DNA of 17,234 bases from a virus. Its lineage: Duplodnaviria; Heunggongvirae; Uroviricota; Caudoviricetes. Both the position numbers and the translations under genes were made by a program. Where the stretch lies: IMG/VR virus record IMGVR_UViG_2778261690_000005, positions 1 through 17,234 of that record, one strand, 5' to 3'. The notes below the pieces were generated by a model, which saw nothing but the letters and a program-made list of their open reading frames with translations, did no database searches and was not told the DNA's origin. Shown here piece by piece: positions 1,944 through 14,246 of this stretch (the first letter of the stretch is position 1; every line of letters begins with the position of its first letter).

Positions 1944-2403
1944 TAACCACCCCGCCAGCTTCTTTGAATTTGGCAATCAGACTATCGATCTTGTGTTCAT
2001 ACTGACCGTAGCCAGCACCGGGCAATGAAGCCCAAATATTACTGCAACGATCAATAGCCTGACGAATATCACCACGATCAATCATCGGTAAAGCGCCACG
2101 CTCTTTAATCTGCTGCAATGCCACTGCATCCTGGCTTTTGGGAGAGAAGTCTTTCAGGCCAAGCTGCTTACGGTAAGCATCCCACCAACGGGAAAGAAGC
2201 TGGTAACGTCCTGCTGCTGTTGATTTGAGTTTGGGGTTTAGCGTGACAAGTTTGCGAGGGTGATCGGAGTAATCAGTGAATAGCTCTCCGCCTACAATGA
2301 CGTCATAACCATGATTTCTGGTTTTCTGCCGTCCGTTATCAGTTCCCTCTGACCACGCCAGCATATCGAGGAACGCCTTACGTTGATTATTGATTTCCAC
2401 CAT
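1927..2403 (-). CDS. R: Endolysin R (lytic transglycosylase)
   Basis: 158 aa, near-identical to lambda R as recalled ([53 protein letters not shown]...). Overlaps S by 17 nt as in lambda. Confidence 0.95.
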
Positions 2404-2710
2404 CTTCTACTCCGGCTTTTTTAGCAGCGAAGCGTTTGATAAGCGAACAAATCGTGTCAGTACCGATGTAGCCGATGAACACGCTCGTTATATAAGCGAG
2501 ATTGCTACTTAGTCCGGCGAAGTCGAGAAGGTCACGAATGAACCAGGCGATAATGGCGCACATCGTTGCGTCGATTACTGTTTTTGTAAACGCACCGCCA
2601 TTATATCTGCCGCGAAGGTACGCCATTGCAAACGCAAGGATTGCCCCGATGCCTTGTTCCTTTGCCGCGAGAATGGCGGCTAACAGGTCATGTTTTTCTG
2701 GCATCTTCAT
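2387..2710 (-). CDS. S: Holin S (class I, Met1-Lys2-Met3 dual start)
   Basis: 107 aa, near-identical to lambda S107 ([39 protein letters not shown]...) with three TM segments. Confidence 0.95.
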
Positions 2711-2829
2711 GTCTTACCCCCAATAAGGGGATTTGCTCTATTTAATTAGTAATAAGGTCGATTACTGATAGAACAAATCCAGGCTACTGTGTTTAGTAAT
2801 CAGATTTGTTCGTGACCGATATGCACGGG

Positions 2830-2865
2830 CAAAACGGCAGGAGGTTGTTAGCGCGACCTCCTGCC
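2830..2865 (-). terminator. Putative intrinsic terminator between the tRNA genes and S (tR'-like)
   Basis: Perfect 10-bp GC-rich stem (GGCAGGAGGT 2836-2845 with ACCTCCTGCC 2856-2865, 10-nt loop), followed on the minus strand by GTTTTG. Confidence 0.5.
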
Positions 2866-2952
2866 ACCCGCTTTCACGAAGATCATGTGTAGAAGGCCGC
2901 AGCGTAACTATCACTGATGAATTCAGGATAGCCAGTGGCTACGGCTCAGTTA

Positions 2953-3028
2953 TGGTGCTGGTTAACGGACTTGAACCGCTACCCATTCGCTTACAAGGCG
3001 ACTGCTCTACCATTGGAGCTAAACCAGC
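2953..3028 (-). tRNA. tRNA-Thr (anticodon UGU)
   Basis: Hand-folded 76-nt cloverleaf on the minus strand: 7-bp acceptor stem GCTGGTT/AACCAGC, D-stem GCTC/GAGC, anticodon loop CTTGTAA (U33, anticodon TGT, A37), T-arm AGCGG-TTCAAGT-CCGTT, discriminator A, encoded CCA. Confidence 0.7.
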
Positions 3029-3033
3029 ATGTT

Positions 3034-3108
3034 TGGCGGGACAGCGTGGGCTCGAACCACGATAAGAAGGTTAACAGCCTTCCGTAATGACCTTTATACG
3101 ACTGACCC
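3034..3108 (-). tRNA. tRNA-Asn (anticodon GUU), somewhat divergent
   Basis: Hand-folded 75-nt cloverleaf: perfect anticodon stem GAAGG/CCTTC with loop CTGTTAA, T-arm CGTGG-TTCGAGC-CCACG, encoded CCA. The acceptor stem GGGTCAG/CTGTCCC has one T-T mismatch and the D-stem is weak. Confidence 0.6.
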
Positions 3109-3111
3109 AAA

Positions 3112-3156
3112 TAAAAAAAGCCACCGTTGCAACTTAAGAGTCACTAACGGCAGCTT
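3112..3156 (-). terminator. Candidate early terminator of the pR' transcript
   Basis: Minus-strand imperfect 9-bp stem (GCTGCCGTT / AACGGTGGC, two G-U pairs, 17-nt loop) followed by TTTTTTTATTT, immediately upstream of the tRNA-Asn 5' end. Confidence 0.35.
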
Positions 3157-3164
3157 ACCTTCTA

Positions 3165-3194
3165 ATTATGGCTAAATGGATAATTGCATGTCAA
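3165..3194 (-). promoter_or_regulatory. Candidate late promoter pR' overlapping the 3' end of Q
   Basis: Minus-strand consensus -35 TTGACA (plus 3189-3194), 18-bp spacer, -10 CATAAT (plus 3165-3170). The Q stop codon lies in the spacer. Confidence 0.45.
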
Positions 3195-3690
3195 GGCTTT
3201 TAACAGCAACATGCTTAACTTTCTCAACACGTTTACGCATTTTGAAAGCATTTTGCATTGGCTGGTACAAAACAAATAACGACGCTTTCAGGATGTCGTC
3301 AATTTCGTTTCTACAGGTTGCCAGTGAAGGTTTTCTACATCCCTCGCCACCACGTCCACACATCTTGCGTGGCTTTGCAGTCGCGTGATAGTAGGATGCA
3401 ATTGCTCGCTTAGATGAACCATGAGCGTAGTAGCTGAGGAGGATGCCAAAGGCTTTCTTGTCAATGTACATGACGGAATCGACGACCTGAGAAATCAACA
3501 TTCCATCATCATCATTGCACATTGGCCTTGTCATAACTCTTCCCGGCTCTACGCTCTCCATGAACTTCGCTATTACGCTGCTCATGCGCTTTTCCAGACG
3601 ACCTGAATAAACCCATGCGCCCCACAGTTCAAGCCAGCCATTCAGCCACTCATGCTGTTCTTTGGTGAGGTTTAGTTCTCTTATGCCCAC
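3172..3690 (-). CDS. Q: Late antiterminator Q, phage 82 / QuuD type (not lambda-Q type)
   Basis: 172 aa between the nin region and the lysis genes. Motifs [29 protein letters not shown] resemble DLP12 QuuD / phage-82 Q as recalled; a Cys cluster (CGRGGEGC...C) is present. Confidence 0.75.
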
Positions 3691-12560: not shown

Positions 12561-12872
12561 ATGATGATTCTGACTCTGAATGATAAGCGTGAAATATCGC
12601 AAATAATCGCAAGTTTTACTGATGAAGATTACGAACGAATCAACAGTGAAGTTGATCGCCTCTGCAAACGTTGCGACCCAATAAGCGAAATGCTTCGCTC
12701 ATATAAACCAGATGAACACACTAAGGACGCTATCGACTGGCTGGAAGATGATGACTGTAACTATCAGGAAAAAGCCGCTGAATGGTTCTGGGATGCAATA
12801 ACCGAAAGAGTTAAGGCTGAATATGCCTTCGCAATATTCAAACGCAGACACATTTTTGGAGAAGCTGCATGA
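12561..12872 (+). CDS. Hypothetical acidic protein (103 aa)
   Basis: ATG preceded by AGGAG; stop overlaps the recT start (ATGA). Acidic, with 4 Cys. No family recognised. Confidence 0.6.
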   Translation: MMILTLNDKREISQIIASFTDEDYERINSEVDRLCKRCDPISEMLRSYKPDEHTKDAIDWLEDDDCNYQEKAAEWFWDAITERVKAEYAFAIFKRRHIFGEAA

Positions 12873-13780
12873 GCAATATCGTTGAATTCGTTAAACAGCA
12901 GGAGCAGTTATTCTGCGGAGCATTGACTAAACAGACGGTGACATGGGCTAAGGAAAGCCAGTTTGCAATTCAGTATTTCCAGAAAAACGATTACCTGGCT
13001 AAAACAGCACTGGCAAATCCAACCAGCGCACAGAACGCCATCATCAATGTTGCGGCGATCGGCATCACCTTAAACCCGGCCAGCAAACTGGCTTATCTGG
13101 TTCCGCGCGACGGCATGGTGTGCCTTGATATCAGTTATATGGGATTGCTCCATATTGCAATGGAGTCTGGTGTTATCTCATGGGGTCAGGCAAAACTTGT
13201 TCATGCTAACGATACCTATGAGTCAAACGGGCTTGATAAAGCACCAACCCATAAATACAACGCCTTCGGTGATCGTGGTGATATCGTTGGCGTTTACTGC
13301 ACAGTTAAGACGCCAGCAGGTGATTATCTAACGGAAGAGATGAGTCTGGCTGAAATTGAGGCTGTAAGGAAAACAAGCAAGGCGGCCTTCAGCGATAAAG
13401 GACCATGGGTAAATCACTGGAATGAGATGGCGCGAAAGACGGTCGTAAAGCGTGCAAGCAAGTATTGGCCTAAGGCATCACGTCTTGATAGTGCTATTCA
13501 CGTACTAAACGAAGAAGAAGGTGTGTGGACTGAACCAGTTATGCCGCACAAATCAGAGGAAGATATCCGCGAAGATGAACGGAAACGCCAGCAGGAAATA
13601 ACGGATAAAGCACAACTTCTTTGTGATGAAATGGCTCAGGCAGAAAACATGGATGATTTGAAGCGATATTTTGCAGAAGCATATCGCCTGACATCTGGAA
13701 TGAAATTGCAGCAGAACGTACAAGCCATTTACGCAGAATGCAAAGCGAAACTGGAGGTTGCCAGTGAGCAAACTGTATGA
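12869..13780 (+). CDS. recT: RecT-family single-strand annealing recombinase
   Basis: 303 aa. Motif FSDKGPWVNHWNEMARKTVVKRASKYWPKAS matches the E. coli RecT region GPWVTHWEEMAKKTAIRRLFKYLP as recalled. Confidence 0.85.
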   Translation: MSNIVEFVKQQEQLFCGALTKQTVTWAKESQFAIQYFQKNDYLAKTALANPTSAQNAIINVAAIGITLNPASKLAYLVPRDGMVCLDISYMGLLHIAMESGVISWGQAKLVHANDTYESNGLDKAPTHKYNAFGDRGDIVGVYCTVKTPAGDYLTEEMSLAEIEAVRKTSKAAFSDKGPWVNHWNEMARKTVVKRASKYWPKASRLDSAIHVLNEEEGVWTEPVMPHKSEEDIREDERKRQQEITDKAQLLCDEMAQAENMDDLKRYFAEAYRLTSGMKLQQNVQAIYAECKAKLEVASEQTV

Positions 13781-14246
13781 AATTGCCAATGAATACGCAA
13801 AGCTGATGGATTCAGATTTAGAACCAGAGATGATTGCTGACACAATAGAAGGCATGGAAGGAGAATTTACCGATAAAATAGAGCAACTTCTTGCCATTAT
13901 TAAAAATGAATCTGGTTATGCTGAATGCCTCAAGGAAGAGGCAAAGTCACTAAATGAACGAGCCGCAGTAATTCAAAATAAGATTGACAACATTATGGCG
14001 TATATAGCGTCATCGCTTGAAATGGTTGGCAAGAAAAAGATTCGAGCAGGTATTCACCAGGTAACAATCCGCAAACCGTCAGAAACTGTAGAAATCATCG
14101 ACTCAAGCGCCATTCCTCCTGAATACGTTGAGTTTGAAACGACAATTAAAGCCGACAAGTTGGCAATCAAACACCAACTAAAAGCAGGAATAAATATCCC
14201 CGGCGCTCAACTCAAAGTTGGGAAACCTTCACTTCTTATCAAATAA
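13764..14246 (+). CDS. Gp157-like (Sipho_Gp157 family) protein associated with the recombinase
   Basis: About 160 aa, coiled-coil rich, N-terminus MSKLYEIANEYAKLM. GTG start with GGAGG RBS overlaps the recT 3' end. Family assignment is from memory. Confidence 0.55.
   Translation: MSKLYEIANEYAKLMDSDLEPEMIADTIEGMEGEFTDKIEQLLAIIKNESGYAECLKEEAKSLNERAAVIQNKIDNIMAYIASSLEMVGKKKIRAGIHQVTIRKPSETVEIIDSSAIPPEYVEFETTIKADKLAIKHQLKAGINIPGAQLKVGKPSLLIK

Follow-up and report, generated by a model that had tools for sequence, protein, structure and literature searches.

A phage 21-type tRNA-Asn/tRNA-Thr cassette in the late leader of a mosaic lambdoid phage and its proposed role against tRNA-cleaving defences

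Related cassettes and the nucleases that cut tRNAs

The original phage 21 paper is said to be that of Guo, Kainz and Roberts from 1991. A tRNA-Asn and tRNA-Thr pair at the site considered here has been on record in phage 21, Sf6, ST64T and SfI for years, and finding the pair as such matters little. The SfI genome paper already lists it downstream of Q in SfI, Sf6, ST64T, PS3, and phage 21, and the cassette is also annotated in BTP1, SPN9CC, and SfI. In the Sf6 record (AF547987), the order is pR', qut, tR', tRNA-Asn, tRNA-Thr, and holin, with each element noted as 'similar to phage 21'. The cassette described below is of this phage 21/Sf6 type and is effectively the same allele, and the function of its tRNA-Thr was published in 2025. 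What is left as new is what is predicted, from sequence, about the modular hotspot and about the tRNA-Asn, which may be nuclease resistant as well.

One nuclease acting on these isoacceptors is OLD, a Toprim protein of the P2 prophage that executes P2-lambda interference (Govande et al., NAR 2025, PMC12445682). Phage tRNA-Thr(UGU) genes rescue cells from it by replacing the destroyed host tRNA and restoring ACA decoding, and the gene from phage 21, tRNA-Thr21, shields cells expressing OLD together with Gam; the gene was assayed from a plasmid, and rescue was partial with small colonies (PMC12445682). Site 1 of tRNA-Thr21 almost completely resists purified P2-OLD. This tRNA carries a shorter anticodon stem along with the changes C28U/G42A, and in engineered thrU both changes, alteration of the CNG and shortening of the stem, were required for protection, the CNG change alone being insufficient (PMC12445682). 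In the OLD assay, the phage alleles protected cells, whereas additional copies of the host tRNA-ThrU helped little or not at all. Host tRNA-Asn(GUU) is a further substrate of P2-OLD, one that is cut more slowly than ThrU (PMC12445682).

[quoted passage not shown] Work with tRNA-Lys mutants showed that cleavage by AriB is abolished by U39 to A and weakened by A41 to C and by U16 to C, and the tRNA-Lys of phage T5 was necessary against the PARIS of E. coli B185. Host tRNA-Asn(GUU) is thus named as a substrate, of P2-OLD and of PARIS AriB, by two independent studies from 2025. If the phage tRNA-Asn also proves resistant, then something that very many prophages carry would have to be read as a counter-defence module directed against rival prophages and satellites, and the variable tRNAs found at the hotspot could predict the targets of uncharacterised tRNA nucleases. 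HepS, the HEPN anticodon nuclease of Gifsy-1, was considered as a relevant defence and rejected, as its targets are tRNAs for Thr, Ile, and Ser and not Asn; it is triggered by siphovirus tail tips, and the HepS paper draws no link to phage tRNAs.

The pair as a discrete cassette of the late leader

The window, meaning the whole stretch of 17,234 bp that was analysed, is a mosaic lambdoid genome, of which no more than 51% is covered by Sf6, the best phage match. Two tRNAs and no others are called by ARAGORN in the window, and each lies on the minus strand, which is the late strand. The first is a tRNA-Thr(UGU) of 76 nt at 2953..3028 (Rfam RF00005 61.5 bits, E=1.9e-11), and the second is a tRNA-Asn(GUU) of 75 nt at 3034..3108 (53.0 bits, E=4e-9). 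Both encode their CCA and both score above the RF00005 gathering score of 29. An earlier note on this DNA had placed two adjacent tRNA genes at 2953-3108 and given them the anticodons UGU and GUU; ARAGORN and Rfam agree on these coordinates, and ARAGORN returned the same two identities. In the transcript, the tRNA-Asn comes first and is followed by a 5-nt spacer and then the tRNA-Thr.

The pair is flanked upstream by Q, pR', and tR' and downstream by the holin gene S, as the same note had it when it put the genes on the late strand between a pR' candidate and S. The late antiterminator Q (3172..3690, minus strand) is an ORF of 172 aa of the phage 21 type, with 83% identity to phage 21 Q (E=1e-100), and the annotation of its homologue in Sf6, gene 59, likewise notes a similarity to phage 21 Q. 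The promoter pR' (TTGACA-18-CATAAT, 3165..3194, minus strand; 11/12 matches in a promoter scan) overlaps the 3' end of Q, shares its sequence with a stretch of Sf6 whose annotation reads 'nearly identical to phage 21 late promoter', and is followed by the qut region. Next comes tR', the intrinsic terminator of the late leader (3109..3156, minus strand), made up of a hairpin at 3156..3118 and then UUUUUUUAUUU. It was detected by RNA folding (-21.5 kcal/mol, z=-4.7, with 0/200 shuffles equally stable), while a consensus terminator scan with a strict loop rule passed over it, and a tR' is annotated at the equivalent place in both Sf6 and HK75. Its U-tract (U7AUUU) stops at 3109, one base ahead of G1 of the tRNA-Asn. 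From this placement we infer that the cassette would be transcribed mainly when RNA polymerase that has been modified by Q, and so made resistant to terminators, reads through tR'. The tRNAs would then be made alongside the late mRNAs and presumably be cut out by normal tRNA processing.

Downstream of the cassette, the first late gene is S (2387..2710, minus strand), an ORF of 107 aa with the dual start MKM of a holin/antiholin, which matching records describe as a lambda-family holin. The ORFs around the pair on the same strand are Q, holin S, endolysin R, and Rz. Between the tRNA-Thr and S lies a GC-rich, terminator-like hairpin, GGCAGGAGGU...ACCUCCUGCC followed by GUUUUG (2825..2871, minus strand; RNA fold -29.9 kcal/mol, z=-2.7). 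This element is common to the tRNA-bearing phages and to HK75, which has no tRNAs, and it is therefore part of the leader rather than of the cassette.

HK75 also defines the limits of the cassette, as Q, pR', tR', and the holin are the same in this phage and tRNAs are absent. The alignment shows a clean substitution that runs from just after the U-tract of tR' to just after the CCA of the tRNA-Thr, so the tRNA pair is a discrete cassette at a mosaic hotspot. The segment that replaces it in HK75 gives no canonical tRNA with the ARAGORN defaults, and Rfam finds a T-arm fragment only; loosened ARAGORN settings give inconsistent calls there (either Ala with a forced 38-nt intron or Arg). The segment is a tRNA-like RNA of 130 nt with acceptor, D, and T arms and a bulky centre.

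Over its 156 bp, the cassette is identical to that of phage 21 (AJ237660.1) at 155/156 positions (99.4%). For a region of 601 bp around the tRNAs, identity is 98.0% with E. coli phage HF4s and 97.7% with Shigella phage Sf6, and it is 96.5-97.6%, over 96% of the query, with SPN9CC, BTP1, and many other P22-like or lambdoid Salmonella phages. The same region matches many E. coli chromosomes, and the cassette is carried by 369 of 5426 complete E. coli genomes (about 7%). Recent capture of the host tRNA genes was considered as an origin and rejected, with identities of only 72% between the tRNA-Thr and thrU and 62% between the tRNA-Asn and asnT.

Public collections were probed with the D-arm of the tRNA-Asn, and this retrieved 125 further loci, or 126 with the window; a cassette with Thr and without Asn would escape such a probe. 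The Asn-Thr arrangement accounts for 100 of the 126, and the remaining loci are modular variants, in which Phe(GAA), Arg(UCU), or Gly(UCC) is present or Asn stands alone. Arg(UCU) is confined to the expanded cassettes of the Klebsiella type, and no tRNA-Lys occurs in the cassette variants among the 126 loci. Spacing is almost constant, with 5 nt between Asn and Thr in 102 of 103 loci, and the tRNA-Asn starts directly after the U-tract of an intrinsic terminator in at least three unrelated leader types, which were classed by eye, many leaders of the Q21 type carrying 1-nt indels. A single locus, L117, has a chimeric tRNA-Thr whose 3' half and anticodon arm are like those of host thrU, followed by Gly(UCC).

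Anticodon arms, codon supply and maintenance of the two tRNAs

Both tRNAs carry the sequence features expected of a canonical elongator tRNA. The ThrRS identity elements G1-C72, C2-G71, G35, and U36 are all present in the tRNA-Thr, as are the AsnRS identity elements G34, U35, U36, and G73 in the tRNA-Asn. Each has an anticodon loop of 7 nt with U33 and A37, a GTTC T-loop, and a 3' CCA.

The tRNA-Thr is identical at 76/76 positions to the phage 21 tRNA-Thr in AJ237660.1, which is the tRNA-Thr21 of PMC12445682. Its anticodon arm (GUCGC-CUUGUAA-GCGAA) contains a G27.A43 mismatch in the stem, and position 14 of the D-loop is C in place of the near-universal A, as it is in 18 of 20 alleles; neither feature was mentioned in the earlier note. 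The CNG positions 28-30/40-42 read UCG/CGA with G39, where host thrU has CUG/CAG with U39, and the U28-A42 pair that takes the place of host C28-G42 matches the C28U/G42A of tRNA-Thr21. Positions 36-41 are UAAGCG against UAAUCA in the host, and position 16 of the D-loop is A against U. All of the traits published for resistance to P2-OLD, namely the UGU anticodon, an altered CNG, and a stem shortened by the unpaired 27-43, are found in this tRNA. The G27.A43 mismatch, which is an oddity akin to those taken as possible signs of decay in the tRNA-Asn, is thus actually a published resistance determinant.

The proposed mechanism begins with the host. Toprim nucleases, P2-OLD foremost and also PARIS AriB, cut the anticodon stem of host thrU, leaving ribosomes stalled at ACA. 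The phage tRNA-Thr would escape because the change from C28-G42 to U-A breaks the paired CNG and G27.A43 shortens the stem, as experiments on the phage 21 tRNA, whose sequence is identical, have shown. We regard it as very probable that the window's tRNA-Thr withstands the nucleases and stands in for host tRNA-Thr(UGU). A weakness for the triggering of P2-OLD by this particular phage is that the window encodes a Mu-Gam-like end-binding protein, along with RecT, in place of lambda Gam.

The strongest competing explanation is that the tRNAs merely boost decoding of ACA and AAC/AAU and have no link to defence. Codon usage, which the earlier note had singled out for comparison with the host, bears this out for ACA and not for the Asn codons. 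ACA makes up 13.9 per 1000 codons in 24 ORFs of the window against 8.1 in 51 MG1655 genes, a 1.7-fold enrichment for which the late genes supply only 788 codons, and its share of Thr codons is 29% against 15%. The SfI paper reports the same bias (ACA 17.3 vs 7.1), and host thrU is a single-copy gene. Given the ACA enrichment, simple supply of a decoding tRNA might be enough to keep the Thr gene in place. The Asn codons stand at 40.1 per 1000 in the window ORFs and 39.9 in the MG1655 sample, again with only 788 codons from late genes, and the SfI authors likewise saw 'no obvious bias' for them. Nor does supply account for the failure of additional host ThrU to give the protection that the phage alleles gave, or for the pattern among Thr alleles, in which the acceptor stem co-varies while the unusual anticodon arm, needless for pure supply, is nearly invariant. 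Codon supplementation was rejected as a full explanation on the Asn figures, and as the sole role of the pair it is unlikely. It is compatible with resistance in the case of Thr, where the same tRNA would also meet a real decoding demand from ACA-rich phage genes, and it fails for Asn. Since codon supply accounts for Thr but not for Asn, the tRNA-Asn is proposed as a second resistant tRNA.

The tRNA-Asn allele of the window is the second commonest (9/124) and has a single difference from that of phage 21, at position 60 of the T-loop (U60 to C). Its anticodon arm is GAAGG-CUGUUAA-CCUUC. At the CNG positions it reads AAG/CUU with C39, where the host tRNA-Asn has a paired CNG (CGG/CCG) with U39 and A37. 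The A28-U42 pair stands in place of host C28-G42, and C39/U41 in place of U39/C41, giving UAACCU at positions 36-41 against UAAUCC in the host, and D-loop position 16 is again A against U. Substitutions at the cleavage sites of both nucleases (the CNG for OLD; U39, position 41, and U16 for AriB) are therefore present. The tRNA-Asn would most likely do the same job as the tRNA-Thr, in this case for host tRNA-Asn(GUU), the slower substrate of both nucleases. That it is a second nuclease-resistant replacement is a close call which we leave just on the doubtful side. One weakness of reading it as OLD resistant is that its anticodon stem is a full 5 bp and not shortened (G27-C43 is paired in 17 of 18 alleles and is G-U in one), set beside the published two-factor rule. 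The Klebsiella-type alleles also count against evasion of OLD, as C28-G42 is restored in these (7/18), and Klebsiella/Mulock-type alleles combine C28-G42 with a perfect paired CNG (CAG/CUG). The phage 21 tRNA-Asn is not mentioned in PMC12445682, and a literature search for any nuclease test of it found none.

Alternatively, the selective agent may be not P2-OLD but a PARIS-type AriB, or another, uncharacterised nuclease with Thr(UGU) and Asn(GUU) as its main targets, and the pair would be tuned to that nuclease. Of the three main AriB targets, two are represented in the cassette; neither phage tRNA has U39, and in both position 41 is altered and D-loop position 16 is A where the host has U. 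Loss of U39 extends to 6/6 phage tRNA-Thr genes and 5/6 phage tRNA-Asn genes sampled, and it is seen as well in Asn alleles of the Klebsiella type, in which the CNG motif of OLD is kept. Against an anti-PARIS role, the cassette is without tRNA-Lys(UUU), the prime target of AriB and the tRNA that T5 needed against the B185 system, and the loss of U39 may be plain inheritance within a phage tRNA lineage and not an adaptation. We consider this alternative improbable, somewhat more so than codon supply.

The possibility that the tRNA-Asn is a decaying or non-functional passenger of the Thr gene is largely refuted. Its acceptor-stem mismatch and weak D-stem, both pointed out in the earlier note, are real: U4.U69 lies in the acceptor stem, and U13.U22 leaves a D-stem of 3 bp, and the Rfam score of the gene is lower than that of its neighbour (53 vs 61.5 bits). 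In a comparison of 18 Asn alleles (126 loci) and 20 Thr alleles, these features turn out to be fixed, with U13.U22 unpaired in 18/18 Asn alleles and U4.U69 in 16/18, just as G27.A43 is unpaired in 20/20 Thr alleles. U4.U69 is kept even where the adjacent acceptor pairs have co-varied, for example in L120 and in the Mulock type. Elsewhere in the molecule, six pairs in Asn and four in Thr have changed on both sides with pairing kept, and for both tRNAs 0/500 shuffles reach the observed covariation score. The paired fraction is 90-94% for the true structures (90% of cells for Asn) against 21-53% for slid controls. The anticodon GUU, the U33-G34-U35 context, A37, the discriminator G73, the T-loop, and the CCA are all intact, and among the loci found with the Asn D-arm probe the gene is retained where Thr has been lost or replaced (ST64T type, Asn-Gly, and Asn alone). 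As the mismatches are fixed and other pairs carry compensatory changes, they are features of a gene under selection and not of one in decay; of the two descriptions that had been offered for it, 'functional-divergent' is closer to the truth, and 'decaying' does not hold. Decay is confined to the ST64T side lineage and to the second gene only, a tRNA whose anticodon arm is shortened, whose Rfam score is 42 bits, and which ARAGORN does not call.

Least probable of all is that the tRNA structures are processing signals in cis, through which cuts by RNase P and RNase E would free the lysis mRNA of the pR' leader and determine its 5' end and its stability, decoding being secondary: the cassette does always come immediately behind the leader terminator, with the lysis genes downstream, and HK75 has a tRNA-like structure that is no tRNA at exactly the same site, but a processing signal has no need of the conserved anticodons and synthetase identity elements, the Thr gene acts in trans from a plasmid, and close relatives such as HK75 manage without canonical tRNAs there.

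The proposed role of the pair and its place among known systems

Taking both genes together, we think it reasonably probable that the cassette provides a resistant replacement for tRNA-Thr and, likely, a second one for tRNA-Asn from within the late operon. A stronger version of this account, in which the Asn and Thr pair is a dedicated, Q-gated counter-defence module against the Toprim tRNases of OLD and PARIS that has been assembled at least twice, is put forward tentatively and is somewhat more doubtful than resistance of the tRNA-Asn on its own. The module would have been built from unrelated Asn genes, one of the lambdoid/P22-like type and one of the P1/N4/Cyrano type, and its repeated assembly would follow from the preference for Thr(UGU) and Asn(GUU) that the OLD and PARIS nucleases share. 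The fixed oddities of the tRNA-Asn (A28-U42, C39, U4.U69, and U13.U22) would then be adaptations for evasion, and the addition of Phe, Arg(UCU), and Gly(UCC) would signal further tRNA-targeting defences in Klebsiella and Escherichia.

A comparison that bears on this stronger version is with P1, Cyrano, and N4. P1, with trnA(Asn)-trnT(Thr), and Cyrano have adjacent Asn(GUU) and Thr(UGU) genes in the same order as the window, and in N4 the two are neighbours. The Asn gene of these phages is unrelated in sequence to that of the window (GATGGTGTAGCTCAG...) and sits in a different genomic context, and since the pair recurs although its Asn gene differs in origin, a selective pressure common to these phages and acting on these two isoacceptors is indicated. 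The Thr genes of all three share C31-G39 with the window Thr. However, those of P1 and Cyrano keep a paired CNG and the full 5-bp stem, unlike the window Thr, and the P1 Asn keeps U39, unlike the window Asn.

The anti-PARIS set of phage T5 resembles the cassette in having Thr and Asn isoacceptors, both of which carry substitutions at the AriB site. In T5 the site reads UAAGCA in Thr and UAAGUU in Asn, compared with UAAGCG and UAACCU in the window and UAAUCA and UAAUCC in the host. The tRNAs of the two phages are only 60-66% identical, and whereas T5 is lytic and has a cluster of 24 tRNAs, the window belongs to a temperate phage with a cassette in its late operon. A complete set of the T5 type needs a resistant tRNA-Lys(UUU), and the cassette, with two tRNAs and no tRNA-Lys, falls short of it.

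Phages of the Stx (933W) type carry ileZ-argN-argO in what we take to be the equivalent lambdoid slot, between the late promoter and terminator and the downstream late genes. These tRNAs, of the Ile(CAU-type) and Arg isoacceptors, are readers of rare codons and lie behind a Q of a different type from that of the window, and to our knowledge no role in evading nucleases has been published for them. The SfI paper, for its part, cites an ileX tRNA next to stx2. No isoacceptor is shared between the Stx-phage set and the window, whose anticodons are GUU and UGU, so the difference in identities that the earlier note had remarked on is borne out. It reflects a different Q and late-leader module and is not an anomaly, and the cassette has no direct bearing on Stx phages.

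The closest system is the phage 21/Sf6 cassette itself. The likeness extends to the genes, their order, the 5-nt spacer, and the position within pR'-qut-tR'-Asn-Thr-holin. The difference comes down to one base in the T-loop of the tRNA-Asn, with the remainder of the window forming another mosaic.

Variant cassettes at the tRNA slot

The slot occupied by the Asn-Thr cassette in the window behaves as a modular tRNA hotspot. In 8 loci the Asn-Thr pair is replaced by Asn-Gly(UCC). Expanded cassettes made up of Asn-Phe(GAA)-Thr-Arg(UCU), followed in one case by Gly(UCC), are found at the equivalent site of Klebsiella phage Mulock (locus L008, 401-720) and likewise in loci L015, L057, L073, L097, and L101. 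In an IMG/VR contig (L117, 1359-1434), the tRNA-Thr(UGU) is a chimera: nucleotides 1 to 26 are those of the phage allele, and from there on, anticodon arm (ACUGA/UCAGU) included, the gene matches E. coli thrU exactly. A tRNA-Gly(UCC) resembling glyT lies 3 nt past this gene. The chimera has the appearance of a product of recombination between the phage cassette and tRNA genes of the host type; going by the published resistance rules (PMC12445682), it would be predicted to be nuclease-sensitive.

Other occupants of the slot are degenerate or tRNA-like. The second tRNA of the ST64T-type cassette (phage ST64T, L007, 481-549) scores 42 bits with Rfam and is given no call by ARAGORN; its anticodon arm is shortened and the normal 7-nt loop is absent. 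The tRNA-Asn upstream of it is intact, which suggests that tRNA-Asn can be kept alone. Exactly at the Asn-Thr site, phage HK75 (HM173637.1; L002, 1754-1883, minus strand) carries a 130-nt tRNA-like RNA with a 7-bp acceptor stem (UGUGGUG/CGCCACA), a D-arm, and a GGUUCGAUUCC T-arm. Roughly 75 nt of structured sequence replaces the anticodon and variable arms, and the RNA has a minimum free energy of -45.7 kcal/mol. Neither ARAGORN nor Rfam at default settings calls a tRNA in this segment. It could be a tRNA that has degenerated or been interrupted, or else some other tRNA-like RNA.

The cassette, or a part of it, also appears in two contigs assigned to gut anaerobes. These short contigs from a Segatella copri MAG (L132) and a Collinsella MAG (L136) contain the exact enterobacterial phage tRNA-Asn D-arm, and in L136 the complete Asn-Thr cassette lies downstream of an enterobacterial-type terminator. 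Both contigs most likely come from Enterobacteriaceae prophages and were placed in these MAGs by a binning error.

The hairpin ahead of the holin gene

Between tRNA-Thr and the holin start sits a GC-rich hairpin (2825-2871, minus strand; -29.9 kcal/mol), GGCAGGAGGU...ACCUCCUGCC, followed by GUUUUG. HK75, which is without the tRNAs, has the hairpin too. It is tempting to speculate that this element could halt tR' read-through transcripts ahead of the lysis genes; such a halt, equally speculatively, would let lysogens express the tRNAs at a low level and not lyse.

Comparison with known tRNAs and phages

Almost all tRNAs have A14, which pairs with U8. Position 14 of the window tRNA-Thr (3015), within a D-loop reading CAAUGGUA, is instead C, and across alleles it is C in 18 of 20 and U in the other 2. 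T5 tRNA-Thr likewise lacks A14 and has U, and the phage 21 tRNA-Thr is reported to be functional (PMC12445682) despite a non-A position 14. Every sampled phage tRNA-Thr(UGU) gene has C31-G39, whereas the host has A31-U39.

The window also encodes, at 13758-14246 and 12869-13780 on the plus strand, a recombination module made up of a RecT-like annealase and a Mu-Gam-like (Ku-type) end-protection protein, where lambda has Exo/Bet/Gam. This recombination module bears on whether the window phage triggers RecBCD-sensing defences such as P2-OLD.

Asn(GUU) and Thr(UGU) genes are paired elsewhere. In P1 (L009, 1425-1578) and Cyrano (L011, 1473-1625) they directly adjoin, Asn first, while in N4 (L010, 1337-1586) both are present with about 100 nt between them; the Asn gene of all three phages is unrelated in sequence to the window tRNA-Asn.
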